Part shown: piece after piece, positions 3,561 to 49,407 of the stretch
Layout of the letters: every line of letters begins with the position of its first letter
Numbering within the stretch: the first letter of the stretch is position 1
DNA from: Escherichia coli
GTDB taxonomy: Bacteria; Pseudomonadota; Gammaproteobacteria; Enterobacterales; Enterobacteriaceae
Assembly: GCF_044324875.1 (NCBI RefSeq)
Contig: NZ_CP172185.1
Reading direction: 5' to 3' (one strand)
DNA length: 64,000 nt
Made by a program: the position numbers and the translations under genes
Notes under the pieces: generated by a model
Databases searched by the model: none
What the model was told of the DNA's origin: nothing
Seen by the model: the letters and a program-made list of their open reading frames with translations, nothing else

Positions 3561-3589
3561 GACACAGTAGCATCAGTTTTCTCAATGAA

Positions 3590-4493: not shown

Positions 4494-4747
4494 TGCCACT
4501 CCTTTTTCACAGTTCCTTGTGCGCGCTATTCTAACGAGAGAAAAGCAAAATTACGTCAATATTTTCATAGAAATCCGAAGTTATGAGTCATCTCTGAGAT
4601 AACATTGTGATTTGAAACAAAATCAGCAGATAAAAAAGTGTTTAATTCTGTAAATTAAGCCTGCATTATCGCAATTAAAAGGATGACAAATAGCATAAAC
4701 CAATACCCTAATGGCCCAGTAGTTCAGGCCATCAGGCTCATTTATTT

Positions 4748-5140
4748 TTATTTCTGCAAATGAGTGACCCGAACGACGGCCGGCGCGCTTTTCTTATCCA
4801 GACTGCCGCTAATGTTGATCATCTGGTCCGGCTGAACTTCTCGTCCATCAAAGACTGCCGCAGGAATAACAACATTAATTTCACCGCTCTTATCGCGAAA
4901 AACGTAACGGTTCTCTCCTTTGTGAGAAATCAAATTACCGCGTAGTGAAACCGAAGCGCCATCATGCATGGTTTTTGCGAAATCTACGGTCATTTTTTTT
5001 GCATCATCGGTTCCGCGATAGCCATCTTCTATTGCATGAGGCGGCGGTGGCGCTGCATCCTGTTTTAAACCGCCCTGGTCATCTGCCAACGCATAAGGCA
5101 TGACAAGAAAACTTGCTAATACAATGGCCTGAAATTTCAT
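4748..5140 (-). CDS. ydeI: YdeI periplasmic OB-fold (YgiW/BOF family) stress protein, 130 aa
   Basis: 130-aa secreted protein with signal peptide. Confidence 0.85.
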
Positions 5141-5461
5141 ACTGACTCCTTAATTGCGTTTGGTTTGACTTATTAAGTCTGGTTGCTATTTTTATAATTG
5201 ACAAATAAGAATACTGCCAATTGTTATAAGGCATTTAAAATCAGGCAACTAGCTGTCAAATATTAAGAGAATTTAACTCACTAAAGTAAGAAGAAGATTA
5301 AAGAGTCTTAAACATATTTCAGAACAATCAGATTTATAAATTTGAAAATTATTATAACGGAAGGGTATACAAAAAAAGTAATTTTGCTGGCGACTGCGAA
5401 ACGGCATTCGCATTAGCGGTGAAGTTTGCCCCCACCCAGCTGCTGCAATTACTGCTCTAAC

Positions 5462-5500
5462 CAGGCTGGCCTGGCGATATCTCCAGGCCAGCCATTGGTG
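5462..5500. terminator. Hairpin just downstream of dcp
   Basis: Inverted repeat ggctggcctgg / ccaggccagcc directly after the dcp stop. Confidence 0.45.
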
Positions 5501-5504
5501 GTGT

Positions 5505-7550: not shown

Positions 7551-7686
7551 TTTCTTCTCCTGAACGCGAGGTGTTCCATAGCGTAGGCTTACTGATAACG
7601 GAGTGCAATCTTGCAAACCAGTATTACCCGCTCTTAAGCATCACGTGCTATGTTATTGACACACAAAAGCGTTGAGGAACAGTGAG

Positions 7687-8433
7687 ATGATCGTTTTAGT
7701 AACTGGAGCAACGGCAGGTTTTGGTGAATGCATTACTCGTCGTTTTATTCAACAAGGGCATAAAGTTATCGCCACTGGCCGTCGCCAGGAGCGGTTGCAG
7801 GAGTTAAAAGACGAACTGGGAGATAATCTTTATATCGCCCAACTGGACGTTCGCAACCGCGCCGCTATTGAAGAGATGCTGGCATCGCTTCCTGCCGAGT
7901 GGAGCAATATTGATATCCTGGTAAATAATGCCGGCCTGGCGTTGGGCATGGAGCCTGCGCATAAAGCCAGCGTTGAAGACTGGGAAACGATGATTGATAC
8001 CAACAATAAAGGCCTGGTATATATGACGCGCGCCGTCTTACCGGGTATGGTTGAACGTAATCATGGTCATATTATTAACATTGGCTCAACGGCAGGTAGC
8101 TGGCCGTATGCCGGTGGTAACGTTTACGGTGCGACGAAAGCGTTTGTTCGTCAGTTTAGCCTGAATCTGCGTACGGACCTGCATGGTACGGCGGTGCGCG
8201 TCACCGACATCGAACCGGGTCTGGTGGGTGGCACCGAGTTTTCCAATGTCCGCTTTAAAGGCGATGACGGTAAAGCGGAAAAAACCTATCAAAATACCGT
8301 TGCATTGACGCCAGAAGATGTCAGCGAAGCCGTCTGGTGGGTATCAACGCTGCCTGCTCACGTTAATATCAATACCCTGGAAATGATGCCGGTTACCCAA
8401 AGCTATGCCGGACTGAATGTCCACCGTCAGTAA
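7687..8433 (+). CDS. ydfG: YdfG NADP-dependent short-chain dehydrogenase, 248 aa
   Basis: SDR Rossmann motif TGATAGFG near N-terminus; start MIVLVTG. Confidence 0.9.
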   Translation: MIVLVTGATAGFGECITRRFIQQGHKVIATGRRQERLQELKDELGDNLYIAQLDVRNRAAIEEMLASLPAEWSNIDILVNNAGLALGMEPAHKASVEDWETMIDTNNKGLVYMTRAVLPGMVERNHGHIINIGSTAGSWPYAGGNVYGATKAFVRQFSLNLRTDLHGTAVRVTDIEPGLVGGTEFSNVRFKGDDGKAEKTYQNTVALTPEDVSEAVWWVSTLPAHVNINTLEMMPVTQSYAGLNVHRQ

Positions 8434-8521
8434 TTTTTATACCCGGCGTAACTGCCGGGTTATTGCTTGTCACAAAAAAGTGGTAGACTCATGCAGTTAA
8501 CTCACTCACAAGCAAGAACGA

Positions 8522-9208
8522 ATGACCGTCGAAACGCAACTTAATCCCACACAGCCTGTCAATCAGCAGATTTATCGTATTCTTCGTCGCGACATTGTCC
8601 ATTGCCTGATTGCACCAGGCACACCGTTGTCGGAAAAAGAAGTTTCTGTTCGTTTCAATGTGTCACGCCAGCCGGTTCGTGAAGCCTTTATTAAACTGGC
8701 GGAAAACGGCCTGATTCAAATTCGTCCGCAGCGTGGCAGCTACGTCAACAAAATTTCCATGGCCCAGGTGCGCAACGGCAGTTTTATCCGTCAGGCCATT
8801 GAGTGCGCGGTGGCGCGTCGGGCGGCGAGCATGATTACCGAAAGCCAGTGCTACCAACTGGAACAAAATCTTCACCAGCAACGCATTGCCATTGAGCGCA
8901 AGCAACTGGATGATTTTTTTGAACTTGATGACAACTTCCATCAACTCCTGACGCAGATTGCCGACTGTCAACTGGCGTGGGATACCATTGAGAACCTGAA
9001 AGCGACCGTTGATCGCGTGCGCTATATGAGTTTCGACCACGTTTCTCCACCAGAAATGCTGTTACGCCAGCATCTTGAGATTTTCTCTGCCCTGCAAAAA
9101 CGTGATGGCGATGCGGTAGAACGTGCAATGACGCAACATTTGCAGGAAATCAGCGAATCCGTGCGCCAGATCCGCCAGGAAAACAGCGACTGGTTTAGCG
9201 AAGAGTAA
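8522..9208 (+). CDS. ydfH: YdfH (RspR) GntR-family transcriptional regulator, 228 aa
   Basis: N-terminal GntR-type HTH with FadR-like C-terminal domain. Confidence 0.85.
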
Positions 9209-9281
9209 TTCATTTCCTCTCATCCCATTCGGGGTGAGAGTCTCTCCCCCCGCCTTATGGCTCATGCATGCATCAAAAAAG

Positions 9282-9296
9282 ATGTGAGCTTGATCA
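9282..9296 (+). promoter_or_regulatory. Possible FNR half-site pair (TTGATcaaaAACAA) upstream of ydfZ
   Basis: Near-match to TTGAT-N4-ATCAA about 90 bp upstream of the ydfZ start. Confidence 0.3.
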
Positions 9297-9384
9297 AAAA
9301 CAAAAAATATTTCACTCGACAGGAGTATTTATATTGCGCCCGTTACGTGGGCTTCGACTGTAAATCAGAAAGGAGAAAACACCT

Positions 9385-9588
9385 ATGACGACCTACGATC
9401 GTAACCGTAACGCAATCACCACTGGCAGCCGTGTTATGGTTAGCGGCACCGGTCACACTGGCAAGATCCTGTCGATTGATACTGAAGGTCTGACCGCTGA
9501 GCAAATCCGCCGCGGAAAAACCGTAGTTGTTGAAGGTTGTGAAGAGAAACTGGCACCTCTGGACCTGATTCGTCTCGGCATGAACTAA
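9385..9588 (+). CDS. ydfZ: YdfZ small protein, 67 aa
   Basis: 67-aa ORF with strong SD (aggagaaaacacctATG). Confidence 0.85.
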
Positions 9589-9623
9589 GCGTGTGAATGC
9601 CGCCGATGGCGGCATTGCTTTTT

Positions 9624-11084
9624 TTACTTCACGGAATATTTCGCAACGGTCGCTTTCGCACCATGCGCTAATAAAGACAAGTACGCTTCCGTCACTTTTG
9701 CAGTAAACAAGCTATTGTCTGGCAAATCATCACCAAAGATCGCCTTAATCGCCAGCAATGACTGGACGCGCGCTTTCCCTTCGGCACTACTTTGTACAGC
9801 CTTCTGAATAACAGGTAACAGTGGGTCACTGCTTTCTATCGGATTTCCCTGTTCATCAACACCACCGACATAACGCATCCAACCTGCGACGCCCAGCGCC
9901 AGCAGATCGAACTTGCTGTCATGCGCCAGATGCCAGCGAACAGAATCCAACATCCGCTGTGGCAATTTCTGGCTGCCATCCATCGCAATCTGCCAGGTTC
10001 GATGACGTAGCGCCGGGTTGCTATAGCGTTCAATTAATCGGTTAGCGTAATCTTGCAAATCAACGCCCTGCACTTTCAACGTCGGCGCTTGTTCCTGCAA
10101 CATCAAGGCATACGCTGCATGACGATAATGTTCATCTTCCATGCAGTCATTAATGTGCTGATATCCGGCAAGATACCCCAGATACGCCAGGAATGAATGA
10201 CTGCCGTTGAGCATGCGCAACTTCATCTCTTCATAAGGCAGCACATCACTAACCAGTTCGGCTCCCGCTTTTTCCCATTCCGGACGTCCGGCAACAAAGT
10301 TATCTTCTATTACCCACTGGCGGAAAGGTTCACAGGCAACGCCAGCAGGATCGCGCACACCGGTAAGTTGTTCGATTTTCGCCAGCGTATCCTCTGTCAC
10401 TGCGGGCACAATACGGTCCACCATTGTTGATGGGAAAGTCACGTTTACTTCGATCCATTGTGCCAGTTTTACATCAACAGCTTGCGCGTAGGAAGTGACA
10501 ACGTCACGCATAACATGACCGTTTTCTGGCATGTTGTCACATGACATGACGGTAAATGCGGGAAGTCCTGCCGCTTTACGGCGAGCCAGCGCCTCAACAA
10601 TCACCCCTGTTGCAGTTTTCGGCTGGTGGGGATTTTGCACGTCGGCAGCGACCATCGGGTGATCGAGCATTAACTGTCCGGTCGCCGGAGAGTGGAAATA
10701 CCCTTTTTCGGTGATTGTCAGAGAGACAATCGCGATTTGCGGTTCACACATCGCAGCCAACACGGTTTCTAAGCCATCTATCTGTACGTGCAAGGCTTTT
10801 TTAACGACGCCAACGACGCGAGCCGTCCACGCATCGGCCGACATTTCCGCAACGGTATAAAGATTATCTTGCTGTTGTAAATCGGCAATTTGCTGTTCGC
10901 CGCCGATTAAATTGACCTCATAATATCCCCAATCACTGAAATGTTTTGTAGCAAGAATATCGGCATACACGCCCTGATGCGCACGGTGAAATGCGCCAAA
11001 GCCTAAATGAACAATTCTTGGGGCCAAGTTATTACGATCATAAACAGGGAGCGTCGCTTTTGCTGATAACAAATTATTTCCCAT
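9624..11084 (-). CDS. ydfI: YdfI mannitol/mannonate dehydrogenase-family oxidoreductase, 486 aa
   Basis: N-terminal NAD-binding motif [10 protein letters not shown]. Confidence 0.9.
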
Positions 11085-11173
11085 AACAATTCCTTAAATT
11101 TAAATATGGCAAGCTGCATGTTTTGTTATATGAATAAAAAATCCCCTCTCCGGTAAGAGAAGGGATGGAGGAT

Positions 11174-12541
11174 TTACAGACTTCTTGAAGGTTGCGCAGC
11201 TGTTACAACACGCGGTTGATCTTCCGCGGCATCTTCCAGTGCACTTAAATCACGGTCTCTCACTTCTGGCATTTTCAGCGCAGAGATTAAACCAATCACT
11301 GAATATGCCATGATCATAATGGCGATCGGATACCAGGATTCCGTCATGGTGCAGAAAATACCCGCCAGGATAGGACCAAAACCGGAAGCGATAAGACCAC
11401 CAATTTCTTTAGAAATCGCCATCCGGGTAAAGCGGTTTTTACAGCCGAACATTTCTGCCATGGTAATGTTTTCCAGAGCAAATAATCCCAGCACCGCACA
11501 GTTATGAATCACAATCAGTGCAACCATAATGGTGCTCGGGGCATAGCTTTTATCTACGATGATAGAAAGCATTGGCCACGCCAGCACAATCGCAGAGGTA
11601 TTCATAATAATATACGGGATCCGGCGACCTATTTTATCGGATAACCAACCAAGGAACGGAATGGTCATAAAGCCGAGAATCGAACTGATCATCAATGCAT
11701 CTGTTGGAATTGCTTTGTTAAACAATAACGTCTGCACTAAATAGCCTGCAAGGAAAGTCTGAATTAAACCGGAGTTACCAGCCTGACCAAAACGCAGCCC
11801 TGTTGCCAGCCAGAAGGATTTGCTCTGGAACATGCTACCAGCAGGTGCAGGTTTTGCTGTCGGTTGGTTGCTGTCGTTAACCTTCTCAAAGACCGGGCTT
11901 TCTTTCAGATTCATACGCAACCAGATAGCAAAGACCATCACGACAACGCTCGCCAGGAACGGTATACGCCATCCCCACGCAAGCAGTTCCTCTTTACTGA
12001 GAATGAAGAACATAAAGGCCCAGATTGCCGTTGCGCTCAAGGTTCCGCAGTTAGTCCCCATAGCAACAAATGAGGAGATAATTCCGCGCTTACCTTTTGG
12101 TGCATATTCCGCCAGCATCGTGCCGGCACCGGAAATTTCCGCGCCTGCCCCCAGCCCCTGAATAATACGCAGCGTCACCAGCAAAATTGGCGCAAACACA
12201 CCAATTTGTGCATAGGTCGGCAGCACACCAATTAAGGTAGTACAGATCCCCATCATAGTGATGGTAATAAAGAGCACTTTTTTACGCCCGATTCTGTCGC
12301 CCATTTTGCCGAAAATAAATGCTCCGACAATACGCGCCACATAACCTGCACCGTAGGTTCCCATTGCCAGAATTAACGCCATTGCCGTTGATGATTCAGG
12401 AAAAAATATTTCATGAAACACTAACGCTGCGCCGAGCGAATATAACTGGAAATCCATAAATTCAAGCGCAGTGCCCAGCCATCCCGATACTGCTGCTTTC
12501 ACCAAATCCTTAGTGCTTCTTTCGTGTTTTTCTATTGTCAT
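11174..12541 (-). CDS. ydfJ: YdfJ MFS transporter, full-length 455 aa
   Basis: Multi-TM MFS translation, uninterrupted. Confidence 0.85.
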   Translation of the reverse strand: MTIEKHERSTKDLVKAAVSGWLGTALEFMDFQLYSLGAALVFHEIFFPESSTAMALILAMGTYGAGYVARIVGAFIFGKMGDRIGRKKVLFITITMMGICTTLIGVLPTYAQIGVFAPILLVTLRIIQGLGAGAEISGAGTMLAEYAPKGKRGIISSFVAMGTNCGTLSATAIWAFMFFILSKEELLAWGWRIPFLASVVVMVFAIWLRMNLKESPVFEKVNDSNQPTAKPAPAGSMFQSKSFWLATGLRFGQAGNSGLIQTFLAGYLVQTLLFNKAIPTDALMISSILGFMTIPFLGWLSDKIGRRIPYIIMNTSAIVLAWPMLSIIVDKSYAPSTIMVALIVIHNCAVLGLFALENITMAEMFGCKNRFTRMAISKEIGGLIASGFGPILAGIFCTMTESWYPIAIMIMAYSVIGLISALKMPEVRDRDLSALEDAAEDQPRVVTAAQPSRSL

Positions 12542-25793: not shown

Positions 25794-27050
25794 ATGTTCC
25801 GCCGTCTGCTTATCGCAACAGTCGTCGGTATTCTTGCGGCCTTTGCCGTTGCCGGGTTTCGTCATGCAATGCTGCTACTGGAGTGGTTGTTCCTCAATAA
25901 TGACTCGGGCAGTCTGGTCAATGCAGCGACAAATCTTTCCCCATGGCGACGGCTGCTAACCCCGGCGCTCGGCGGACTGGCGGCGGGTTTGTTGCTGATG
26001 GGCTGGCAGAAATTTACCCAGCAACGCCCTCATGCGCCGACCGATTACATGGAAGCGTTGCAAACCGATGGGCAGTTTGATTACGCAGCAAGCCTGGTTA
26101 AATCGCTTGCCTCTCTGCTGGTAGTAACCAGCGGCAGTGCAATTGGTCGCGAAGGTGCGATGATTCTTTTAGCTGCCCTTGCCGCCTCCTGTTTTGCCCA
26201 ACGTTTTACGCCACGCCAGGAGTGGAAATTATGGATCGCCTGTGGGGCCGCGGCGGGAATGGCTGCGGCCTATCGTGCCCCGCTTGCTGGCAGTTTATTT
26301 ATAGCCGAAGTGCTGTTTGGCACTATGATGTTGGCCTCTCTCGGCCCGGTGATTATTTCCGCCGTCGTGGCGTTGCTGGTTAGCAATCTGATTAATCATA
26401 GCGACGCGTTACTCTACAGCGTACAACTCTCAGTGACGGTTCAGGCTCGTGACTATGCGCTGATTATCAGTACAGGTGTGCTGGCAGGTCTGTGCGGACC
26501 ACTGTTGTTAACGTTAATGAACGCCTGTCATCGTGGATTTGTGAGTCTCAAACTTGCGCCGCCCTGGCAACTGGCACTGGGCGGGTTGATCGTGGGTCTG
26601 CTTTCCCTGTTCACACCTACAGTGTGGGGCAACGGCTATAGCACCGTACAATCCTTTTTAACCGCCCCGCCACTGTTAATGATCATTGCCGGGATCTTCC
26701 TATGTAAACTGTTTGCCGTGCTGGCGAGTAGTGGTTCTGGCGCGCCCGGTGGTGTCTTTACACCGACGCTATTTATCGGTCTTGCCATTGGCATGCTGTA
26801 TGGTCGTAGCCTGGGATTATGGTTCCCTGATGGCGAAGAAATGACGCTTTTACTCGGATTGACCGGAATGGCGACACTGTTGGCGGCGACCACGCACGCG
26901 CCGATTATGTCGACGTTGATGATATGTGAAATGACCGGGGAATATCAGCTACTCCCCGGTTTATTGATTGCCTGCGTAATTGCGTCGGTAATTTCGCGGA
27001 CGTTACACCGTGACTCTATCTACCGCCAGCACACTGCGCAGCATAGCTAA
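25794..27050 (+). CDS. clcB: ClcB voltage-gated ClC-type chloride channel, 418 aa
   Basis: ClC motifs GSAIGREG and GxFxP (GGVFTP); start [10 protein letters not shown]. Confidence 0.9.
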
Positions 27051-27698
27051 GCGGATGTATTGCCCCAGTTCACGCTGTTCGGCGCGCGGCAGATAAGGCA
27101 GTTCACCAATGAGCGGTGCCGGAAGTTTTTTACCCAGCACATCAATGATTTCCGCATAATGCGCCAGTCCTGGATTGATTCGGTTAGCCACCCAGCCAAT
27201 GAGCGGTAGCCCGTCGTTGGCGATCGCCTGAGCTGTTAGCAGTGCATGGTTAATGCAACCTTCCTGAATACCGACAACCATCAACACCGGCAGTTGTTCC
27301 TGCACCACCCATTCAGAGAGCGGACGCAAATCATTCATCAGACTGCGCCAGCCGCCAGTCCCTTCTACCACCACATGATCGACTTTATCGGTCAGGTTTG
27401 CCAGGCCGTTTGAAATGAGGGTGTAATTGATTGGGCAACTGTGCGCCACGCTACTTTCTTCTTCGCTTAACGCGATAGGATTAACTGCTTCATAAGGCAG
27501 TTCGATGGTTGAAACACTCTGCAACACCAGGGCATCTTTATTACGCAGCCCTTCGGGTGTCTCTTTGCTCCCCTTCGCTACGGGTTTATATCCCGCAACC
27601 GTTTTTCCCTGGGAGGCTAACGCTTGTAGCAATGCGCGGGAAACCACCGTTTTCCCTACAGAAGTGTCTGTACCGGTAATAAAGAAACGCTTCAGCAT
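27003..27698 (-). CDS. ynfK: YnfK (BioD2) dethiobiotin synthetase paralog, 231 aa
   Basis: P-loop GTDTSVGKT; 3' end overlaps clcB by 48 bp (convergent). Confidence 0.9.
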
Positions 27699-31431: not shown

Positions 31432-31449
31432 AAAAATAAATATCCTCCG

Positions 31450-32160
31450 GCATAGCCGGAGGTTTTTCAAATGCGCCTATAAGGCTCTCTTACCAGCCGC
31501 GCCCTAACAGGCGCACACGATCTGACATTTGCATCCAACTTCGTTACTTACGGCCCGTAAACGGGCTGCCCGGATAGGGAATCGATAACTGCTCTCCCAT
31601 TTTATCCTCTTCAAGCTGGTGCTTTATGTAATCCTGTATCTTCGCCGTGTTCTTACCCACCGTATCGACGTAATACCCTCTGCACCAGAACTCCCTGTTC
31701 CTGTATTTGAATTTCAAATCACCAAACTGCTCGTAAAGCATCAGACTGCTTTTCCCTTTCAGATATCCCATAAAGCCTGATACGCTCATTTTGGGCGGGA
31801 TCTCCACAAGCATATGGATATGATCTGCACAGCATTCAGCTTCCAGAATCCGTACACTTTTCCACTCACACAGCTTTCTCAAAATACAGCCTATTGCTCT
31901 ACGCTTCTCTCTGTAGAACACCTGTCTTCGGTATTTTGGCGCAAATACTATGTGATATTTACAGTTCCATCGGGTGTGCGCTAAGCTCTTTTCGTTCCCC
32001 ATTGGGACCCCCTTTTGATTTCTTGTTTGACACTTGCAGTTGCCAGACCGCAAGGTGTTTTAACAAATCAAAAGGGGTTTTAATAACTGGCTCAAAGCTG
32101 AAAGCTTTCCGGAACCCCCAGCCTAGCTGGGGGTTTTCTGTGCACAATAAGTCCGGACTG
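31450..32160 (-). mobile_element. IS200-like element (IS200/IS605 family), about 0.7 kb; ends approximate
   Basis: Contains Y1 (HuH) transposase gene; upstream of its ATG is a stem-loop that includes the SD, and further upstream a perfect palindrome ggaacccccagcctagctgggggtt at ~32103-32128; no terminal inverted repeats expected for this family. Confidence 0.7.
31544..32002 (-). CDS. tnpA: IS200-family TnpA Y1 transposase, 152 aa
   Basis: Translation MGNEKSLAHTRWNCKYHIVFAPKYRRQVFY... with HuH motif (ADHIHMLVEIPP) and catalytic Tyr region. Confidence 0.9.
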   Translation of the reverse strand: MGNEKSLAHTRWNCKYHIVFAPKYRRQVFYREKRRAIGCILRKLCEWKSVRILEAECCADHIHMLVEIPPKMSVSGFMGYLKGKSSLMLYEQFGDLKFKYRNREFWCRGYYVDTVGKNTAKIQDYIKHQLEEDKMGEQLSIPYPGSPFTGRK

Positions 32161-35103: not shown

Positions 35104-35240
35104 ATGGCAAAGCCGATCATCACGCTCAATGGCCTAAAAATCGTCATTATGTTGGGAATGCTGGTCATTATTCTCTGCGGTATCCGTTTTGCCGCCGAGA
35201 TCATCGTGCCGTTTATTCTCGCATTATTTATTGCTGTTAT
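35104..35240 (+). pseudogene. tqsA: tqsA (AI-2 exporter) 5' fragment, first ~45 codons, truncated by element insertion
   Basis: ATG at 35104 encodes [45 protein letters not shown], then the frame runs into AT-rich foreign sequence and stops within ~25 bp; the rest of the gene resumes at 50814. Confidence 0.88.
35232..35240. repeat. Left attachment-site core (attL), 9-bp TGCTGTTAT
   Basis: Same 9-mer recurs at 50813-50821, where the tqsA reading frame resumes. Confidence 0.7.
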
Positions 35241-35316
35241 ATATAACTTATTTCACTTAACACATTGATTTAATTAAATAATTTACACTACAAAAAGTGC
35301 CAAAAATCGCAAATTA

Positions 35317-35369
35317 ACTACACCATTAACTACACCGTTCGGCGCACTGTATGAAACAACGTGGAACAA
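35317..35369 (+). repeat. Left-arm repeat cluster: 2x ACTACACC (12-bp spacing) then GAAACAACGTGGAACAA
   Basis: ACTACACC at 35317-35324 and 35329-35336; 17-mer at 35353-35369 recurs inverted at 49334-49350. Confidence 0.6.
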
Positions 35370-35559
35370 ATAGGCACAAGAAATATAAAGGCGGGTAATT
35401 TTTAGGGGGCGTTAATGTCGATATGGGGATCCACATATCGAGATTGATACCTGGCTTTTTTTCCGGTTAACCTTTAATCAGGCTGGTGGGCTTTACCTGT
35501 TCTGTAGGAGTGGTCATTATGACCATTCAGCCAATGACCTTAATCAGAATTTTTCGCTA

Positions 35560-35590
35560 AAAAATGACGTTGGCCACGTCATCCGGAAAG
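35560..35590 (-). terminator. Probable terminator at the end of the packaging operon
   Basis: Palindrome atgacgttggccacgtcat followed by a T6 run on the minus strand. Confidence 0.45.
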
Positions 35591-35652
35591 CACAAAATCA
35601 CGTCGATTTTTAATGGATGGTTAAACCGTCTTTATCTCGATGTCCGTACGTA

Positions 35653-35943
35653 TTACGTACGCAGTCGTTCCGGCTTCTTCCAGTGGTACGTATTTTTCGC
35701 GCTCTCCCTCCGTTGTTGAGAACGGCGACGGTATGCCAGCAACTCAAGGACTCTTGTTCGTATGTTGCGCATATCCACGCCGTTAAGCTCAATACCATCA
35801 CGGCGCATCACCTCCGCAACAACACGCACATAATTTTCGGCGGTCACGCTGTCCGGCTGCGTGGCCTGTTCGTCATGCTGCTGGCTGATTCCGGTAACGC
35901 GGCGGATTAATCCCAGTAGTTCGGCTTCGCTCATTCTCGTCAT
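35653..35943 (-). CDS. Hypothetical protein (96 aa), start overlaps terL stop (ATGA)
   Basis: ORF start overlaps the terL stop; no recognisable motif. Confidence 0.4.
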   Translation of the reverse strand: MTRMSEAELLGLIRRVTGISQQHDEQATQPDSVTAENYVRVVAEVMRRDGIELNGVDMRNIRTRVLELLAYRRRSQQRRESAKNTYHWKKPERLRT

Positions 35944-37601
35944 ACCCCATCAAACGCCGCAAGCCGCTCTTTGTGGCTGTCGCTCATATCGAATGCAAAT
36001 TCCTCATGCTCTGCCTGGAATGTGCCAAACGCCATCAGCGCCGCAACGCTCGGGTCTATCTTGTTGGATGATTTTTTCTTGTTCGGCTTGATATTGGCGT
36101 TCGCGTCACTCTGCATCACAACATTACTCATTGACCAGGCCAGCACCGGATCACCACGATGCACAATCACCTTCCGGTTAACAAAAACTTCGAACGATTT
36201 CGCCGCCGGACTGAAACGAAGGTATGTTTGCGGGAACGGCTCCACCTCAAATCCCGCCCCCTGTAGCTGTGTTCTCAGGTGAGTGGCGTTCCATGTATCG
36301 AAGCCCACCAGCCTGATACTGAAATTCTCTGCATCCGCCATGATGTCATCACGGATACGGTCATAATCAATGCAGTCACCCGGTGTTGTGCGTATCCAGC
36401 CAGCCTTTACCCACTGGCGATAGATGGCGCGGTTTTTATTGGCGGGGTTCTGTAGCTGAAATTCCGGCAGATAGTGACGGGAAACCAGCATAATTTTTTT
36501 ACCGACCGGGAAGGCATAGCACACGCTGGAAATATCGCTGGTTGATGATAAGTCCAGCCCCGCGTAGCACTCCTGCCCGTATAAATCCGCCTCCGCGAAC
36601 GTTCCGGCGCACTCCGCCCATGCACCGTTACCCATCCACGGCGTAGCCCCCTGACACCAGATATTGAATCGCTTGGTGAGCATTTCCACCCACTGCGACG
36701 GAATACCCCGCGCTTTCTGGATGGTTGAGGCCAGTTTTTCACGATCGACGGAAACATCGATATTGGGATTCGCCTTTATCCACATCGCCGGATCGTCAAC
36801 CTCGCTTTCATCATCCAGCTCGTAAATCAGCACGAACATGGATTCGTTCACCTCTTCACCATCCAGTATCTGGCAGCAATAGTCATAGTGTTGTTTACAG
36901 GCTGAAACAACGTTGCTCCCCGATGTGGTGATGGCAAATAACAGCCCCTCCGGACGCGCCCCCATTCCCAGCTCAAGCGCGGAATAAACCCCGTTGTCAG
37001 GGTGCAGGTGATATTCATCCACAATGGCAAGACTCGGGTTTGTACCTTCAATGGTTGCCGCTTTTGCTGCCAGTGGCTTTAACAGGCTGTTGGTTTTCGC
37101 GTGTATCACCTTGTGTGCCTGAATATTTACCCGCTTTCGTAACGGTCGGGATAAAAGGCACATCTGACGCGCATCATCAAACACGATCCGCGCCTGATCA
37201 CGACTCACGGCGGCGGTGTAAATATCCTGCTGCCCGTTTTCCATAACCAGAAACCAGTTAGCCAGGATAGCGGCGACCGTGGATTTGGCATTTTTTCGCG
37301 GTACTTCAATGAATGCGCTGGTGTATTTGCGCCGTCCGGTGGCCTTAACCTTAAAGCCCAGGATGCACGCAAAGGCGAACTGCTGCCACGGCTCCAGCTC
37401 AATGGGGCTACCGCGCATTGCGCCTTTTACGTGCGGACACACCCTGGAAAAGGCAATAAACCGCTCCACGACCTCCGGATCGAACGTGTAAAGGGGGTTT
37501 TCAAGGTCAGAAAAATACCGTTTAACAGCCTGTTTCAGTCGTTTACAGGCCGTAATTTTGCCGTTTTTTACGCCTTCTGCGTACTCATGCCAGGCGGTCA
37601 A
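35940..37601 (-). CDS. terL: Terminase large subunit, 553 aa
   Basis: ATPase P-loop-like VPRKNAKST and Walker B-like LAIVDEYH, C-terminal nuclease-like region; overlaps terS 3' end. Confidence 0.85.
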   Translation of the reverse strand: MTAWHEYAEGVKNGKITACKRLKQAVKRYFSDLENPLYTFDPEVVERFIAFSRVCPHVKGAMRGSPIELEPWQQFAFACILGFKVKATGRRKYTSAFIEVPRKNAKSTVAAILANWFLVMENGQQDIYTAAVSRDQARIVFDDARQMCLLSRPLRKRVNIQAHKVIHAKTNSLLKPLAAKAATIEGTNPSLAIVDEYHLHPDNGVYSALELGMGARPEGLLFAITTSGSNVVSACKQHYDYCCQILDGEEVNESMFVLIYELDDESEVDDPAMWIKANPNIDVSVDREKLASTIQKARGIPSQWVEMLTKRFNIWCQGATPWMGNGAWAECAGTFAEADLYGQECYAGLDLSSTSDISSVCYAFPVGKKIMLVSRHYLPEFQLQNPANKNRAIYRQWVKAGWIRTTPGDCIDYDRIRDDIMADAENFSIRLVGFDTWNATHLRTQLQGAGFEVEPFPQTYLRFSPAAKSFEVFVNRKVIVHRGDPVLAWSMSNVVMQSDANANIKPNKKKSSNKIDPSVAALMAFGTFQAEHEEFAFDMSDSHKERLAAFDGV

Positions 37602-37941
37602 GCTCGTCCTCTTCCTCTGTTTCCGGTGGATTTCTGCGGCGGCTTACCGGGTCAAAACCCAGCAAAGAAGCCATTTTGATCATTATTCTTTCCGCGTCAG
37701 CCTTTGCGCTCAGGGCGGGGTTTCTGCTCTCGCTGCCCTGACTGTTAACAATGCTGAACCCGCGCGTGGCAAGGTCTTCGACGGCTTTGCGGTATATGGA
37801 GTAGTTAACGCAATACAGCTCCAGATTGCTCCAGTCGGCGGGAGTAAGGTCTTCCCGTCCGGAAAGCTGGCGCGATTTTTCCTTCCACTGCCTGACCGCG
37901 ATTTCATCCAGGTAAGCGGGGGCTTTTGGTGGTCTTGCCAT
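37585..37941 (-). CDS. terS: Terminase small subunit (P27-type), ~118 aa
   Basis: Translation MARPPKAPAYLDEIAVRQWKEKSRQL...; overlaps terL start by 17 nt. Confidence 0.7.
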   Translation of the reverse strand: MARPPKAPAYLDEIAVRQWKEKSRQLSGREDLTPADWSNLELYCVNYSIYRKAVEDLATRGFSIVNSQGSESRNPALSAKADAERIMIKMASLLGFDPVSRRRNPPETEEEDELDRLA

Positions 37942-38004
37942 GTTCTTTTTTCGCCCAATTATTTTCAAAAAAATTCCCGTGCACAAAAATTTGAGCAGGC
38001 GGTC

Positions 38005-38060
38005 GGTTCTGGGCGGGGTCGGGTTCGTCCTGAAAACTCCCCCCCACCCCGTCCGGCTGC
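38005..38060. other. Candidate cos/packaging-initiation region (GC-rich, lambda-cosN-like)
   Basis: gggcggggtcgggttcgtcc and ctcccccccaccccgtccggc between the HNH module and terS; resembles the lambda cohesive end GGGCGGCGACCT. Confidence 0.35.
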
Positions 38061-38064
38061 CTCA

Positions 38065-38247
38065 TCAGCGATTGCGGAAACATTCCATAACCTCGCGGTC
38101 ACGGTCGTTTAATCGCGTCGCTGTGATGCGTTCTGCGCGTCCTGATGCTTTATCTTTATGCCCTGTTTCCTGTGCCTTCCATGCGTCACGCTGCCTTATC
38201 AGTCCACGAATAAGGCTGTTTTGTTCCCGTTCATTCATCAGCGTCAT
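38065..38247 (-). CDS. Possible small hypothetical protein (60 aa) between HNH and terS
   Basis: Internal ATG of the 38065..38481 ORF, starting just before the HNH stop. Confidence 0.3.
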   Translation of the reverse strand: MTLMNEREQNSLIRGLIRQRDAWKAQETGHKDKASGRAERITATRLNDRDREVMECFRNR

Positions 38248-38671
38248 ACATCCAGTTATTGCGGTTGGCTGCCCGTTCTTCCTCCTCACGGAATCCGCCA
38301 ACTGCACGCTTGTTTTTTGTGGCCGGATCAAGCCATTTCGTTTTCTGGTTATGACACGCCTGACACAATGGCTGATGATTCCACTCAGGCCAGAAGAGAA
38401 CATCATTACCGCCATCGATGGGGATAATGTGATCCACCACCACGGCGGGCGTGTATATTCCTTTTTCCAGGCAATGCGCACATAACGGGTTTTTACTCAG
38501 GTACATAGCGCGGTATTTCTCCCACTGCCTCGTATACCCTCGCTCCCTGCTGCTGCCTCTCCGGCTGTCCTGCTGCTGGCGTGCGCTGCGTCTGTGCTCC
38601 TCACACTTGCCGGACTTCACGCGCCTGTTGCAGCCTGGTTGTGTGCATCGTCTCAATGGTTGCCACGGCAT
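38231..38671 (-). CDS. HNH endonuclease (terminase-associated), 146 aa
   Basis: Zn-finger/HNH motifs CTQPGCN...CEEH, CAHC, VDHIIPIDGGND, NHQPLCQACHNQK. Confidence 0.85.
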   Translation of the reverse strand: MPWQPLRRCTQPGCNRRVKSGKCEEHRRSARQQQDSRRGSSRERGYTRQWEKYRAMYLSKNPLCAHCLEKGIYTPAVVVDHIIPIDGGNDVLFWPEWNHQPLCQACHNQKTKWLDPATKNKRAVGGFREEEERAANRNNWMYDADE

Positions 38672-38967
38672 CAGTACACCCCCACATCACGATAAACCGA
38701 CCAGAGCGCGGAAATCGTCAGGGGAATTTCTTTTGTATCGGTATCGCCAAGCGTTGTCCGGTACTCGTACAGTTGCGAGATGTACATCAGGCAACCAATT
38801 TTTATTGCAGGGGTAAATTCCAGGCCGTCATCAAAACGCCTGCCAATATGCTTCTGGCATACCTCCAGCGCCGCGCTTATGTATGCCTGAATCAGTGTGT
38901 CTTCTGTGTTACCATCTATGCGGCAGTGAAGTTTGGCCTCTTCCAGGGTTATTTTTTCTGCTGTCAT
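38671..38967 (-). CDS. gp6-like head-tail connector protein, 98 aa
   Basis: N-terminal LEEAKLHCRID...DTLIQAYISAALE signature. Confidence 0.65.
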   Translation of the reverse strand: MTAEKITLEEAKLHCRIDGNTEDTLIQAYISAALEVCQKHIGRRFDDGLEFTPAIKIGCLMYISQLYEYRTTLGDTDTKEIPLTISALWSVYRDVGVY

Positions 38968-39302
38968 TTTTCTGTACCCACCTTTGCCAGAATTTCCAGC
39001 CGGGTTCTTTTCGCATCAGGTAAGGGGATCCCGATGATATTAAGCGTGCTCCCGGCAAAAGCGCCGGTAAGCACTTTCAGGCGACTGGCGGCGGATATGT
39101 CGCCACGATAGCGAACCCATACCCGAATCGTTGCAGGTGCGGTTTCTGCGCCTGCGGTCAGTAATTCCCGTCCGCTGATCCCCTTGACCTCTGCCCAGAT
39201 GGTTTCCCCTTCCGTCCATATCTGCTGGATCGCACCTGACGGCAGGCGCTGTGTGGTAAATGTCATAATCGTCACCCGGTCCCGCATCTTTCCGGCTATC
39301 AT
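38964..39302 (-). CDS. Head-tail joining / head closure protein, 112 aa
   Basis: Size, position next to portal, and the typical RDRVTI...WAEVKGISGRE pattern. Confidence 0.6.
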   Translation of the reverse strand: MIAGKMRDRVTIMTFTTQRLPSGAIQQIWTEGETIWAEVKGISGRELLTAGAETAPATIRVWVRYRGDISAASRLKVLTGAFAGSTLNIIGIPLPDAKRTRLEILAKVGTEK

Positions 39303-40516
39303 TCGTCACCGCCCTTACTGTTCTTGCTGATTGTCACTTCCTGCTTCCATGCCTGGCTGAACTCGTCGCCACCTTCACGCGGCGGCATTCCCTCACGCTC
39401 ACGGGCTTCGTTCGGATTGATGATCCCGTTCTTAATCCCTTTCTCATACGTGGCGTAACGTTCGGTAGGGGTGGCGCGTAATAAATCGGCTGAATCAAAC
39501 TCAACCAGATAACGGGTACCAGGTACGGGAGAAGCCACCAGCAAAGCAGCCTTGATTTGCTGTTCGAAGTTCGCCAGCCACGGGCGCATTGTCATGGTCA
39601 GAAACGCGCGGCTTGCCTCACTGAAATTGCTGTAGGTGCTGTTGCTGTATTCCTGCAAAAAAATCGGCGAGACGTTGAACATTCGGGCGATGTCTTCAAT
39701 GGTAAAGCGACGGGAGGCCAGCCATTCAGCATCCTGATTACTCATGCCCAGCTGCTGATAGCTCATACCCCCTTCAAGGATGGGCGTTTTTCCGGCGTTT
39801 CTGGCCCCTTTGTAGCGTTCCAGTGCGGCTAATGCCTGTTTGCCCTTCACGCCGTCCAGCCATTCGCCTGACGTGATAACCCCTGCCGCCATCATGCCAT
39901 CACGCATCACGCTCGCGCCGTGGCGTTGTTGGGCCAGCCCAAGCCCCAGCGATTCGCGGCAGATGGTTACAGGTGAGCGCCCCATAAAGCCGTCATCCGT
40001 GGAGTAACGAAGGTGGAGAACCTCCCACGGTAAATAGTTGCGGGTGTTTCCGGTGTAGGCGTCAGTGATGCAGTAGCGCCAGTTATGCTCACCTGTCTGC
40101 TCCACGTTCACCGACTGCGGCGGGTAAGGATGTAAAGCCACCGGAAAACCATCACGCCCCCACTGAATAACCGCATAAGCATTACCGTTTAACAGGCAGT
40201 GGCGGATCATCATTCGCTTAAACTGGTAGGGGGTTTGCCATGCGTTCGGGCGCTCGTTGAGGATGTGATCGACCGGATGAGAATCAAGCCACTCGCGGGC
40301 CTCCTTCCCCTTCTCATTGCGTACCAGGTACAGGTAACACGGCATGGTAGCCACCGCCTCAGAGATGACCGTCACGGCGTTCATGACGGCGGGCAGTGAT
40401 TCCGCTGTCCCCGATGATACGTACTCACCCGCCCCCGTGTTCGATGTGCCCGCCAGCGCCATAAATTCATCAAGCGTCATGCTGCGCTGCTCTTTTTTTC
40501 TTCTGAAAAGCCACAT
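39299..40516 (-). CDS. Portal protein (HK97-type), 405 aa
   Basis: Length and position between protease and connector genes; HK97-portal-like translation. Confidence 0.8.
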   Translation of the reverse strand: MWLFRRKKEQRSMTLDEFMALAGTSNTGAGEYVSSGTAESLPAVMNAVTVISEAVATMPCYLYLVRNEKGKEAREWLDSHPVDHILNERPNAWQTPYQFKRMMIRHCLLNGNAYAVIQWGRDGFPVALHPYPPQSVNVEQTGEHNWRYCITDAYTGNTRNYLPWEVLHLRYSTDDGFMGRSPVTICRESLGLGLAQQRHGASVMRDGMMAAGVITSGEWLDGVKGKQALAALERYKGARNAGKTPILEGGMSYQQLGMSNQDAEWLASRRFTIEDIARMFNVSPIFLQEYSNSTYSNFSEASRAFLTMTMRPWLANFEQQIKAALLVASPVPGTRYLVEFDSADLLRATPTERYATYEKGIKNGIINPNEAREREGMPPREGGDEFSQAWKQEVTISKNSKGGDE

Positions 40517-40517
40517 A

Positions 40518-41090
40518 TCACACCCCCGCTAAATCCACCCACCAGCGGCGATTATCCGCACGCGGCATTTTTTCGGGGTGCTGCTCATACAGGGAACGGC
40601 GGGCCAGCTCCACGCCAGAATCGGGGTAAGCCGGTACCGATGTAACGGTAATTTCGTACAGTTCCGCCACCAGCACGGTACGAACGCATGGATCTGTTGT
40701 GGTATCCCATACATCCTTACGGGAGCGAAAGCCAAAGCTCATGCCGGATATATCACCGCGTTTAACCAGTTCGATAACGTCGCGCCCTGTACTGGTATCC
40801 GGTGGGGTCAGTTCAAAGCGTAACCCTGTTTCGTCCTCTTCCAGTTTCAGCGTGCCGGAACGGGTGCGCCCCAGTAACATGCTGTGGTCATGCTCATACA
40901 GGCCGCGAACGTCATTACCCGCCGCAAGCCATTCAGTAAACGCCCCCCGCTGGAATTTTTCGTAAAACTCACCCCATAACAGTTCTGAAAGCTTATCCCA
41001 GCGAACAACGTAGCCCGTCAGCGTACCGGCTCCGCTCGTGGTGATTTCCGATGACCGGATTTCCATACTCTTCATAATTTTTTCACCCAT
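40518..41090 (-). CDS. Prohead protease (HK97 family), 190 aa
   Basis: Translation resembles HK97-type prohead protease; lies between capsid and portal. Confidence 0.75.
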   Translation of the reverse strand: MGEKIMKSMEIRSSEITTSGAGTLTGYVVRWDKLSELLWGEFYEKFQRGAFTEWLAAGNDVRGLYEHDHSMLLGRTRSGTLKLEEDETGLRFELTPPDTSTGRDVIELVKRGDISGMSFGFRSRKDVWDTTTDPCVRTVLVAELYEITVTSVPAYPDSGVELARRSLYEQHPEKMPRADNRRWWVDLAGV

Positions 41091-41129
41091 AAAACACTAA
41101 AGGGGCTTTTAAGCCCCTTCTGTATGCTG

Positions 41130-49359: not shown

Positions 49360-49407
49360 ATCTGTGTGCTTATCCAGTATGCGCATACTGAAAAAACACG
49401 AAAAAAA

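Follow-up and report, generated by a model that had tools for sequence, protein, structure and literature searches.

The DNA analysed here, referred to as the window, is a stretch of 64,000 nucleotides from Escherichia coli (assembly GCF_044324875.1, contig NZ_CP172185.1) in which the genes clcB and ynfK lie tail to tail. clcB occupies positions 25794..27050 of the plus strand and codes for 418 amino acids when the K-12 start is used (the PGAP start is at 25758); its product is a homologue of the ClC-type chloride/proton transporters. ynfK lies on the minus strand at 27003..27698, codes for 231 amino acids and is a paralogue of the dethiobiotin synthetase gene bioD; it is called bidA in the current K-12 annotation and 'bioD' by PGAP. 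It has reportedly been characterised as an anaerobic BioD paralogue by Song and Cronan in Mol Microbiol 2021. Both frames are true protein genes and not shadow ORFs, as seen from the matches to BioD and ClcA structures and from the coding-type conservation of codon positions. ClcB matched ClcA structures with E=2.5e-26; residues 5-402 could be aligned with E. coli ClcA and residues 5-410 with Salmonella ClcA 1kpl (chain 36-445), and sequence comparison points to homology of its transmembrane domain with the ClC family, including the central Tyr. YnfK matched E. coli BioD structures with E=5e-65, its residues 3-220 being aligned to BioD 2-224 and thus reaching the last BioD residue. Its N-terminal GxxGxGKT motif contains the invariant G15, K16 and T17, and judged by its sequence YnfK appears to be a BioD-family protein over its full length.

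The two genes share 48 bp at 27003..27050, read on both strands, where ClcB codons 404-418 and the stop lie against YnfK codons 217-231 and the stop. This amounts to 15 sense codons plus a stop for each gene, or 16 codons when the stops are counted. The ORF list and the sequence agree on the frame stops, TAA at 27048-27050 on the plus strand for clcB and TAA at 27005-27003 on the minus strand for ynfK. The frames are in exact antiparallel register, codon against codon and position 2 against position 2. The ynfK stop (27003..27005, minus strand) is the reverse complement of the TTA codon of ClcB Leu404, and the clcB stop (27048..27050, plus strand), whose position shifts between genera, is the reverse complement of the TTA codon of YnfK Leu217. 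An overlap of 16 codons at this place had been claimed in the earlier note, and it is borne out by the sequence, by the ORF list and by the annotation of K-12 MG1655. Checking of the stops annotated in K-12 gave the same 48-bp overlap in the RefSeq record of MG1655 (clcB 1665315..1666571, bidA 1666524..1667219), and it is identical in the RefSeq records of K-12 NEB 5-alpha and of the genome nearest to the window over this stretch. It should be noted here that the window is colinear with this nearest genome (AF40) only at about 12.4-35.2 kb; gene coordinates elsewhere are derived from the window itself.

An overlap of this length invites the explanation that a sequencing error, a frameshift or a mis-called stop has lengthened one of the two ORFs. 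Among annotated long convergent overlaps, 124 of the 178 exceeding 60 bp were found to be errors of 3'-end extension; the convergent orientation is the one that allows long overlaps to be genuine (PMC2478687). The antisense register can also stay open for more than 100 codons, as in a Klebsiella variant without the ynfK stop (P0024) where reading continues for 116 further codons, and a spurious extension is therefore easily made. Such an artefact is contradicted by the identical stops in 5420 complete E. coli genomes, by a ynfK stop that does not shift by a codon among 80 species from many genera, by the retention of the YnfK tail length and its Val-Asp-Arg motif even in genomes without clcB, and by the presence, in the ClcB part of the overlap, of a conserved Tyr, the counterpart of ClcA Tyr445. 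The junction region is present at >=95% identity in 5420 of the 5426 complete E. coli genomes, which rules out an error of sequencing or coordinates. That most genomes should have an earlier stop, ahead of 27003 in ynfK or of 27048 in clcB, is likewise excluded. The artefact explanation is already refuted and the probability left to it is negligible. A 16-codon extension is not in itself improbable in this antisense register, where stops arise only opposite TTA, CTA or TCA codons of the partner. The part that exceeds chance is the conservation of the overlap and not its length.

Conservation of the overlap was complete among the species compared. An overlap of 27-66 bp was present in 63 of the 63 Enterobacteriaceae species that carry both genes, namely 27 bp in 3 species, 39 bp in 1, 45 bp in 15, 48 bp in 33 and 66 bp in 11; as the species are related, these counts do not represent independent events. 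The genera concerned are Escherichia, Salmonella, Citrobacter, Klebsiella, Raoultella, Enterobacter, Kluyvera, Buttiauxella and others, so that the suggestion that the overlap is a conserved feature of the locus holds. The ynfK stop is fixed across 80 species, with YnfK exactly 231 amino acids long in all 80, whereas the clcB stop wanders. Tyr410 of ClcB always falls inside the overlap in the 63 species with both genes, and in every species that has clcB the gene runs at least 1 residue beyond it.

The mutual constraint that had been proposed for the two C-termini was evident in the codons. Third positions of YnfK codons within the overlap had an entropy of 0.80 where clcB is present; for the remainder of ynfK the figure was 1.19, and for the overlap sites of genomes from which clcB has been lost it was 1.35. 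The clearest case is YnfK Val226, which lies opposite the TAC codon of ClcB Tyr410 (27021..27023, plus strand), the residue that corresponds in the alignment to ClcA Tyr445, the central tyrosine in anion coordination. Only in genomes with clcB is the Val226 codon invariably GTA, its third base having an entropy of 0.0 with clcB and 1.8 without it. On the other side, only TAA or TAG serves as the ynfK stop in genomes with clcB, and ClcB Leu404 is limited to TTA or CTA because the ynfK stop lies opposite; TGA as the ynfK stop was found in clcB-less genomes only. Taken together, we regard the presence of a real and conserved overlap with mutual constraint as close to certain, with a probability of about 0.97.

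How two proteins can accommodate such an overlap is suggested by the nature of their tails. The alignment of YnfK to BioD stops at residue 220, and residues 221-231 (27006..27038, minus strand) make up a tail of 11 residues past the end of the BioD fold. In the AF2 model of YnfK the mean pLDDT is 48 at residues 221-230 and values are below 50 at 225-231, as against 90.5 for the whole protein. The alignments of ClcB to Salmonella ClcA 1kpl, Synechocystis CLC and eukaryotic CLCs all stop at residue 410, and in E. coli clcB continues for 8 codons past Tyr410. The overlap would thus be tolerated since the shared stretch consists of a low-confidence YnfK tail and a ClcB tail of variable length after Tyr410; the conservation pattern behind this is observed directly, and the tails themselves are probably flexible. 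The fixed points of the overlap are the ynfK stop, the Asp-Arg motif of YnfK and the Ser-Ile-Tyr motif of ClcB. The YnfK tail motif ..VDR[VI]xA-stop is retained even in clcB-less genomes. We had considered that the YnfK tail might be a unique extension made by reading into clcB, and this idea was dropped: relatives of YnfK at 42-65% identity, which were obtained by an exhaustive search of representatives (a word-indexed search gave close relatives only), have tails that differ in length and sequence. Among database variants of YnfK of 213-229 amino acids no clean removal of the tail was found; most had internal deletions and two had altered C-termini.

A second feature of the junction is a GC-rich stem-loop in the ynfK-sense RNA at 26934..26960 (minus strand), with its 5' arm at 26960-26952 and its 3' arm at 26942-26934, forming 9 bp that can be extended to 11. 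It lies within the clcB codons for Thr-Gly-Glu-Tyr-Gln-Leu-Leu-Pro-Gly, begins after a 42-nt spacer from the ynfK stop and precedes the clcB stop by 88 nt. Because there is no intergenic space, the whole ynfK 3' UTR lies antisense within clcB, and the stem-loop is held there by selection on synonymous sites of clcB. The 121-nt region folds with -33.3 kcal/mol (z=-2.56), and the stem, at about -17 to -21 kcal/mol, is conserved across species and found at the same place in all species that have clcB. In the alignment 93.1% of cells are paired and 20 cells are compensatory, with 0 of 500 shuffles as good, and RNAalifold independently recovered the same 9-bp stem. Pair 7 is compensatory, being C-G in 33 sequences and G-C in 18-24, through a Glu/Gln change in ClcB together with a synonymous CTC/CTG change at Leu; this covariation may reflect only two or three changes. 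A search for an Rfam family at the junction or the hairpin found none. In a lineage further removed (L154) the convergent pair overlaps by only 4 bp and the hairpin is weak, at -9.2 kcal/mol.

The evidence that the stem is maintained comes from the synonymous sites. Across the 63 species the hairpin Pro is CCC, a rare codon, in all 63 and the hairpin Thr is ACC in all 63, whereas the Gly codon is GGG in 53, GGA in 9, GGC in 1 and GGT in none. Among 100 conserved four-fold columns of clcB, where the mean third-position entropy is 1.53, zero entropy is confined to these Thr and Pro sites, and the hairpin Gly site is the fifth lowest. The observed mean folding energy was -16.7 kcal/mol as against -6.2 kcal/mol for synonymous recodings, p<=0.022 in 62 of 62 species; that is to say, in each of the 62 the hairpin is more stable than at least 97.8% of its synonymous recodings. 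The peptide EMTGxYxLLPG does not force the hairpin, because some 30 distant CLC genes that encode the same peptide with no ynfK neighbour use mixed codons and fold weakly, mostly at -0.4 to -6 kcal/mol. Selection on the hairpin is therefore very probable.

The hairpin could also serve clcB itself, or act at the level of DNA, its place downstream of ynfK being incidental; the possible forms are a translational pause for insertion of the last helices, a stabiliser or attenuator of the clcB mRNA, or a palindrome bound by a protein. A metagenomic clcB orthologue (L165, 70% identity) retains a hairpin of -17 kcal/mol with no ynfK within 11 kb, so that the hairpin may not serve ynfK alone, or the rearrangement may be recent. 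In E. coli UUUAUUGAUU comes after the hairpin in the clcB sense, the variation at pair 10 favours the clcB strand and pairs on that strand only, and the mean folding energies are nearly equal on the two strands (-16.6 and -16.5 kcal/mol). Over all 11 pairs the strand asymmetry in non-Watson-Crick cells is modest, with 47 G-U and 50 mismatches in the ynfK sense and 32 and 65 in the clcB sense. In the core pairs 2-9 it is pronounced, since the departures are 23 G-U and 7 mismatches when read as ynfK-sense RNA and 2 G-U and 28 mismatches when read as clcB-sense RNA, which speaks against a role on the clcB strand. The codons that would pair on the clcB strand only, ACT and CCT, never occur, and at the Gly site the 9 cases of GGA, which pairs on the ynfK strand only, stand against a single case of GGC and GGT together. 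Nor is the U-rich run of the clcB strand conserved, the Leu codons being free to vary.

Genomes that lost clcB bear on the same question. All four genomes with only a 3' remnant of clcB retain the hairpin, and in Trabulsiella (2 genomes) and Lelliottia nimipressuralis the arms CCGGGCAG...CUGCCCGG are retained while the rest of clcB is gone. That the arms outlive the gene speaks against a function for clcB, and we consider such a function, or one at the level of DNA, improbable. Among clcB-less genomes 11 of 13 have a hairpin of -14 kcal/mol or more stable that starts <=40 nt from the ynfK stop. Canonical terminators consisting of a hairpin and a T-run directly follow the ynfK stop in two C. 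amalonaticus genomes, one Kosakonia and one soil MAG. In two clcB-less Kosakonia genomes the hairpins past ynfK are only weak ones. ynfK itself is unchanged in the lineages without clcB.

Of the four statements in the earlier note the three taken up above hold; the fourth, that the overlap couples the transcription termination of the two genes, did not find support here. A consensus scan, which needs 5 T in 8 bases, called no terminator near the junction on either strand, the hairpin site included. The hairpin has the GC-rich stem-loop of an intrinsic terminator and lacks the U-run; the sequence that follows, UCAUUUCAC (26925..26933, minus strand), makes a poor U-tract and lies antisense to the conserved codons for Cys-Glu-Met-Thr of ClcB. 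On the ynfK side, a published Rho region with its peak at MG1655 1666514(-) is listed as 'primary' for ynfK and antisense to clcB (PMC7815308, supplementary file 2), which after conversion of coordinates falls at 26993 on the minus strand of the window, 10 nt past the ynfK stop. Its Rho score is 4.2 (p=1.5e-6), with upstream/downstream reads of 85/11 without bicyclomycin and 292/159 with bicyclomycin (PMC7815308); this position, upstream of the hairpin, is approximate, as it comes from 800-nt windows with low read counts in one data set. Neither ynfK nor clcB has a 3' end in the Term-seq tables of the same study, whose cultures were grown in LB and M63 glucose, whereas ynfK is activated by FNR (PMC3688515). 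The TERMITe supplements likewise lack an entry for the two genes, and among the papers searched one alone names both, in rows of a table.

Nothing comparable was observed for clcB. Beyond its stop, the clcB-sense RNA has less structure than shuffled versions (z=+1.18). A mirror element in ynfK was looked for across 62 species, and no four-fold ynfK site was frozen, the lowest entropies belonging to ordinary preferred codons. The C-rich stretch at 27250-27400 (C/G up to 2.0) is no more than a hint of a Rho site for clcB. In place of a shared terminator at the junction there is a ynfK-sense hairpin inside clcB and a Rho region at the ynfK 3' end, with no counterpart for clcB inside ynfK. The consequence for termination therefore looks one-sided, the 3' end of ynfK being encoded in clcB, rather than an established coupling of the two.

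Rho-terminated mRNAs of E. coli end just past stable stem-loops without U-tracts, with rut sites downstream (PMC6061677). The ynfK hairpin agrees with this description, being stable, having no U-rich stretch after it and lying 42 nt from the ORF stop. The ynfK-sense RNA has a C/G ratio of 1.1-1.56 for about 200 nt past the hairpin, which is compatible with rut and not distinctive. Given one published bicyclomycin data set and the Dar and Sorek rule, the most likely role of the stem-loop is to provide the ynfK mRNA with a stable 3' end: Rho would stop transcription past the ynfK stop and the hairpin would then block 3'-5' exonucleases. Pausing or weak termination at the hairpin may come in addition. 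On balance we favour, with some reserve, a role of the hairpin as a 3'-end element of ynfK.

It could also be possible that the hairpin is not mainly protective and is the termination device itself, either as an intrinsic terminator of low strength or as the hairpin that pauses polymerase in a bidirectional terminator of the collision type described between convergent E. coli genes. This would agree with the stable GC-rich stem followed by UCAUUUCAC, with a model in which hairpins lacking canonical U-tracts define the collision sites of convergent genes (bioRxiv 10.1101/2022.10.23.513370), and with the canonical intrinsic terminators that are often present at the same position in clcB-less genomes. 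It is less easily reconciled with the poor U-tract, at which the scan called nothing, and with the published indication of Rho dependence. A collision-type hairpin is expected between the two genes; the present one lies well upstream of the clcB stop, and clcB polymerases stopping there would truncate ClcB before Tyr410. We hold this to be unlikely.

The arrangement also raises the possibility of regulation between the two genes. The mRNAs are complementary over >=48 nt, or about 115 nt if ynfK transcripts reach the hairpin, the arrangement is conserved, and ynfK is directly activated by FNR (PMC3688515). The overlap could in that case be an excludon-like antisense device in which FNR-driven ynfK lowers ClcB through polymerase collision or through RNase III acting on the 3' duplex, or the reverse. 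Together with the hairpin it would form an oxygen-responsive switch, anaerobic expression of ynfK lowering full-length ClcB by way of polymerases paused at the hairpin or of the duplex of about 115 nt with the clcB mRNA. If true, such a switch would link anoxic biotin synthesis to chloride/proton transport, and the hairpin would mark how far antisense transcription may reach into clcB. Both the unchanged ynfK of lineages without clcB and the overlap of 4 bp with which the related lineage L154 manages weigh against the device, and the constraint on two proteins and a hairpin explains the conservation adequately. We consider regulation by antisense, and the oxygen-responsive switch built on it, to be improbable.

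Within about 120 bases the locus carries information of three kinds, namely two protein tails, a functional residue of a transporter and an RNA structure of the opposite gene. An RNA structure of a neighbouring gene can freeze the so-called silent sites in a gene for a membrane protein, as the invariant CCC and ACC codons in 63 species illustrate. Tests of selection on clcB and analyses of its codon usage will be distorted at the hairpin sites, and a recoded or codon-optimised clcB would no longer carry the ynfK hairpin. A clcB deletion that removes 26934-27050 also takes away the YnfK tail and the 3' hairpin, and a ynfK deletion that removes 27003-27050 truncates ClcB before or at Tyr410. The phenotypes of single knockouts of clcB or ynfK would need to be read with the shared sequence in mind. 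As an overlap the locus is of an ordinary kind and was annotated before; the modestly new detail is the hairpin written into the clcB coding sequence.

Convergent overlapping pairs are a known class in prokaryotes, and E. coli has 75 of them in total (PMC4161906). Two further convergent overlaps, of 4 bp each, are present in the same window, folM/ydgC at 58467-58470 and tus/fumC at 61958-61961. Like other members of the class, clcB and ynfK are two real genes on opposite strands that share their 3' ends, with stops that have moved and an arrangement conserved in relatives. The overlap differs from the typical 4-bp convergent overlap in being far longer, 48 bp here and 27-66 bp across genera, and from the class as a whole in including a functional residue, Tyr410 of ClcB. 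With the excludons of Listeria and other antisense transcript pairs that overlap at their 3' ends, clcB/ynfK shares convergent transcription units with complementary 3' regions, through which reciprocal regulation would be conceivable; compared with classical excludons its overlap is short. Bidirectional terminators such as ynaJ-uspE (Ju et al. 2019, as cited in bioRxiv 10.1101/2022.10.23.513370) resemble the present locus in having a convergent pair, a non-canonical hairpin and transcripts that necessarily overlap. Those sites lie between the genes and serve both, whereas the hairpin studied here is inside clcB and cannot be the clcB terminator; the class is moreover described there as Rho-independent, whereas the published data for clcB/ynfK point to Rho. 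There is a likeness also to the protective stem-loops of Dar and Sorek 2018 (PMC6061677), with which the locus shares a stem-loop without a proper U-tract near the stop, a reported bicyclomycin-sensitive termination region and downstream RNA that is mildly rich in C relative to G. The ynfK hairpin, with its putative 3'-end role, differs from the stem-loops described there in lying wholly in the coding sequence of the convergent gene, where it is maintained through the synonymous sites of clcB.

The window is a segment of an E. coli chromosome, and between 26400 and 27800 it is 99.9% identical to isolate AF40, the closest genome in this interval, and about 98.5% identical to K-12. Here clcB on the plus strand, which codes for a ClC-type chloride/proton transporter homologue, converges with ynfK on the minus strand, which codes for a BioD paralogue. 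The clcB stop (TAA) lies at 27048-27050 (+) and the ynfK stop (TAA) at 27005-27003 (-), and the genes share 27003-27050 on both strands, that is, 48 bp or 16 codons per gene including the stops. The identical overlap is annotated in RefSeq for K-12 MG1655 (clcB 1665315..1666571; bidA, a synonym of ynfK, 1666524..1667219), and the records of K-12 NEB 5-alpha and AF40 carry it as in MG1655. The overlap proposed in the earlier note is thus real, as the sequence, the ORF list and the annotation of three records agree. An error of sequencing or coordinates is excluded, as 5420 of the 5426 complete E. coli genomes contain the region and K-12 has the same annotation. Candidate starts of clcB at 25734 (first in-frame GTG), 25758 (PGAP, 430 aa) and 25794 (K-12, 418 aa) leave the 3' overlap unaffected. 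The local background for the 48-bp case is given by two further convergent overlaps in the window, folM/ydgC at 58467-58470 and tus/fumC at 61958-61961, each of just 4 bp. In E. coli WGS1363 (NZ_CP141204.1 740300-742476) the match covers annotations for an IS1 family transposase, for clcB and, twice, for bioD (ynfK), which suggests that IS1 interrupts ynfK.

Elsewhere the window departs from AF40. Inside tqsA lies a phage-like element (35241-50812; about 15.6 kb), flanked by 9-bp direct repeats (35232-35240 and 50813-50821), which AF40 does not have. Comparable elements of other E. coli genomes contain an integrase, a RepA-family helicase, a terminase large subunit, a portal protein and a major capsid protein; most of the element is present in just 22 of 5426 genomes, and it includes an Rfam C4 antisense RNA match at 47472-47559 (-). 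The first part of the window (1-12445) is not colinear with AF40, which has prophage genes there (RusA, hokD, dicB, integrase), and contains an Rfam STnc560 match at 3378-3591 (-; 281 bits). AF40 also lacks a stretch of about 0.7 kb (31440-32145) that lies between ynfM and asr and holds an Rfam STnc490 match at 32012-32135 (-; 146 bits).

Throughout the overlap the frames run in exact antiparallel register, codon facing codon. The ClcB side reads Leu404-His-Arg-Asp-Ser-Ile-Tyr410-Arg-Gln-His-Thr-Ala-Gln-His-Ser418-stop and the YnfK side, in the same left-right order, stop-Val231-Thr-Val-Arg228-Asp227-Val226-Ala-Leu-Val-Ser-Arg221-Leu-Met-Ala-Leu217; the TTA codon of ClcB Leu404 is the complement of the ynfK stop, and that of YnfK Leu217 the complement of the clcB stop. 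In this register a stop is possible only opposite TTA, CTA or TCA, and therefore long open antisense frames are expected. As a property of ORFs the overlap is for this reason not statistically surprising, and it is its conservation that counts. The openness of the frame can be seen in a Klebsiella-like YnfK of 347 aa from NCBI, which has lost its stop and continues for 116 further codons through the clcB antisense.

Residues 3-220 of YnfK align to E. coli BioD through the last BioD residue (E=5e-65), and residues 221-231 form an additional tail. An AlphaFold2 model built with 40 homologues has a pLDDT of 90.5 overall, a mean of 48 at 221-230 and values below 50 at 225-231. On the YnfK side the overlap thus takes in the tail and the four residues that end the BioD-like fold. 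ClcB matches ClcA structures with E=2.5e-26, and its residue 410 stands opposite ClcA Tyr445, which is the central anion-coordinating residue in established ClC structural work; whether the partner is Salmonella ClcA, a cyanobacterial CLC or a eukaryotic one, the alignment extends to position 410. The overlap thus holds one probably important ClcB residue, Tyr410, with just eight residues after it.

Mutual constraint was measured as mean nucleotide entropy at YnfK codon positions 1, 2 and 3. In genomes with clcB it was 0.35, 0.12 and 1.19 in ynfK outside the overlap, as against 1.01, 0.30 and 0.80 within it, while the overlap region of genomes without clcB gave 0.95, 0.45 and 1.35. Within the overlap, the YnfK protein is under weaker constraint, and clcB holds the silent sites of ynfK, which relax after clcB loss. 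The clearest single case is the third base of YnfK Val226 (GTA), which lies opposite ClcB Tyr410 and is invariant in genomes with clcB, whereas its entropy is 1.8 in those without. Where clcB is present, ynfK ends in TAA or TAG only, because the same bases must read Leu in clcB, and TGA was seen only where clcB is missing. The suggestion that both C-termini are constrained is borne out by these observations.

It had also been supposed that the overlap is conserved at the locus, and this was confirmed. One genome per species was scanned with a YnfK query, giving 80 species of Enterobacteriaceae, and YnfK was exactly 231 aa in all 80. In the 63 species with intact clcB the overlap measures 27 bp (3 species), 39 (1), 45 (15), 48 (33) or 66 (11); the ynfK stop is fixed and the clcB stop shifts, never coming nearer than one residue past Tyr410. 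The gene clcB is missing in 13 species and reduced to a 3' remnant in 4, and in nearly all of these YnfK is unchanged in length and ends in Asp-Arg-[Val/Ile]-x-Ala. A YnfK relative of about 65% identity is located after mlc, has another tail and is followed by a permease gene. A metagenome contig (RCUM01000814.1; ClcB 64% and YnfK 66% identical) has the convergent pair with an overlap of just 4 bp, CTAG, at 5539-5542; both proteins are short-tailed, the hairpin described below is weaker (-9.2 kcal/mol), and the arrangement may be ancestral or secondarily shortened. As such relatives have another downstream gene or a 4-bp overlap, the long overlap is a conserved trait of core Enterobacteriaceae and not required by the gene pair. 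An assembly titled Chryseobacterium sp. 18061 (CACSKA010000003.1) contains an enterobacterial ynfK-clcB locus (YnfK 88% and ClcB 75% identical to E. coli) and is probably mislabelled or contaminated.

No intrinsic terminator was predicted at the clcB/ynfK junction, and the RNA past the clcB stop is unstructured. A strong hairpin, absent from the earlier note, is found in the ynfK-sense RNA at 26934-26960 (-), 42 nt past the ynfK stop, within the clcB codons for Thr-Gly-Glu-Tyr-Gln-Leu-Leu-Pro-Gly, and it occupies the same position in every species with clcB. The third-position entropy averages 1.53 over 100 conserved clcB codon columns with four-fold degeneracy (61 species); just two of them are invariant, Thr ACC and Pro CCC of the hairpin, and the hairpin Gly (GGG/GGA) is fifth lowest. 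CCC is a non-preferred codon in enterobacteria. No comparable frozen four-fold sites were found in ynfK. When the nine codons were resampled synonymously with each species' own codon usage, the mean folding energy was -6.2 kcal/mol versus -16.7 observed, and in each of the 62 species no more than 2.2% of recodings folded equally well. Pair 7 alternates between G-C and C-G, a Glu/Gln exchange in ClcB on one arm being compensated on the other by a synonymous CTC/CTG exchange at Leu; in the alignment 93.1% of cells are paired, none of 500 shuffles matched the observed values, and RNAalifold independently recovered the same stem. About 30 distant metagenome CLC genes with the identical peptide EMTGxYxLLPG and no ynfK neighbour have mixed codons and folds of mostly -0.4 to -6 kcal/mol, and therefore the peptide does not force the hairpin. 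The hairpin is selected at the nucleotide level.

The variation of the hairpin favours the ynfK strand, and natural clcB deletions agree. In the core stem (pairs 2-9 of 11), the non-Watson-Crick pairs comprise 23 G-U and 7 mismatches on the ynfK-sense RNA versus 2 G-U and 28 mismatches on the clcB-sense RNA. ACT and CCT, which would pair on the clcB strand only, never occur, and GGA, which pairs on the ynfK strand only, occurs 9 times versus once for GGC and GGT combined. The hairpin is retained in all 4 genomes where clcB is reduced to a 3' remnant; in Trabulsiella and Lelliottia nimipressuralis the arms are kept with a different loop and a shorter spacer, the remainder of clcB being lost. 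In 11 of 13 genomes without clcB a hairpin of at least -14 kcal/mol strength starts at most 40 nt past the ynfK stop, and two C. amalonaticus, one Kosakonia and one soil MAG, all without clcB, have canonical hairpin-plus-T-run terminators directly past it. A role for ynfK alone is, however, opposed by two Kosakonia genomes with just weak structures past ynfK, by the modest strand asymmetry over all 11 pairs, and by a clcB orthologue that has the hairpin with no ynfK nearby. This orthologue (70% identity; metagenome contig Ga0308165_1004853, 2831-4135) has ghrA/ycdX-like ORFs downstream and no ynfK in 11.4 kb; its hairpin (ACC GGG...CCC GGG) reaches -17 kcal/mol, and a minus-strand hairpin-plus-T-run terminator lies past its clcB stop.

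From the strand preference and published termination data we infer that the hairpin is a ynfK 3'-end element. A Rho termination region listed by Adams et al. (PMC7815308, supplementary file 2) has its best coordinate at MG1655 1666514 (-) and is classed as 'primary' for ynfK and antisense to clcB; the coordinate falls 10 nt beyond the ynfK stop and corresponds to about 26993 in the window. In that single data set, which comes from LB cultures grown aerobically, has few reads and uses 800-nt windows, the read counts upstream and downstream were 85 and 11 without bicyclomycin and 292 and 159 with it (Rho score 4.2, p=1.5e-6); our reading supposes that this would hold beyond these conditions. Dar and Sorek (PMC6061677) showed Rho-terminated E. 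coli mRNAs to end right after stable stem-loops without U-tracts, which shield them from 3'-5' exonucleases, with rut sites just downstream. The ynfK hairpin agrees with this picture: on the ynfK-sense RNA its 3' side continues into UCAUUUCAC, after which the RNA is mildly C-rich (C/G 1.1-1.56) for about 200 nt. The most likely reading is that the ribosome departs at the ynfK stop, that Rho then ends transcription within the clcB antisense region, and that the conserved hairpin sets and shields the 3' end of the ynfK mRNA. A corresponding element for clcB termination was sought within ynfK and none was found, so the idea that termination of the two genes is coupled is not supported.

Long gene overlaps can be real only in convergent orientation (PMC2478687), and E. 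coli has 75 convergent overlapping gene pairs (PMC4161906), a known class to which the clcB/ynfK overlap belongs. A literature search of limited reach found no published description of the clcB-embedded hairpin. The hairpin lacks the U-tract of an intrinsic terminator, and it does not lie between the genes as collision-type bidirectional terminators do. In structure it resembles the protective stem-loops of Rho-terminated mRNAs, and its Rho dependence would follow from the literature (PMC7815308). The overlap itself is ordinary and already annotated; the new part is the hairpin, a further case of a known type of RNA element.
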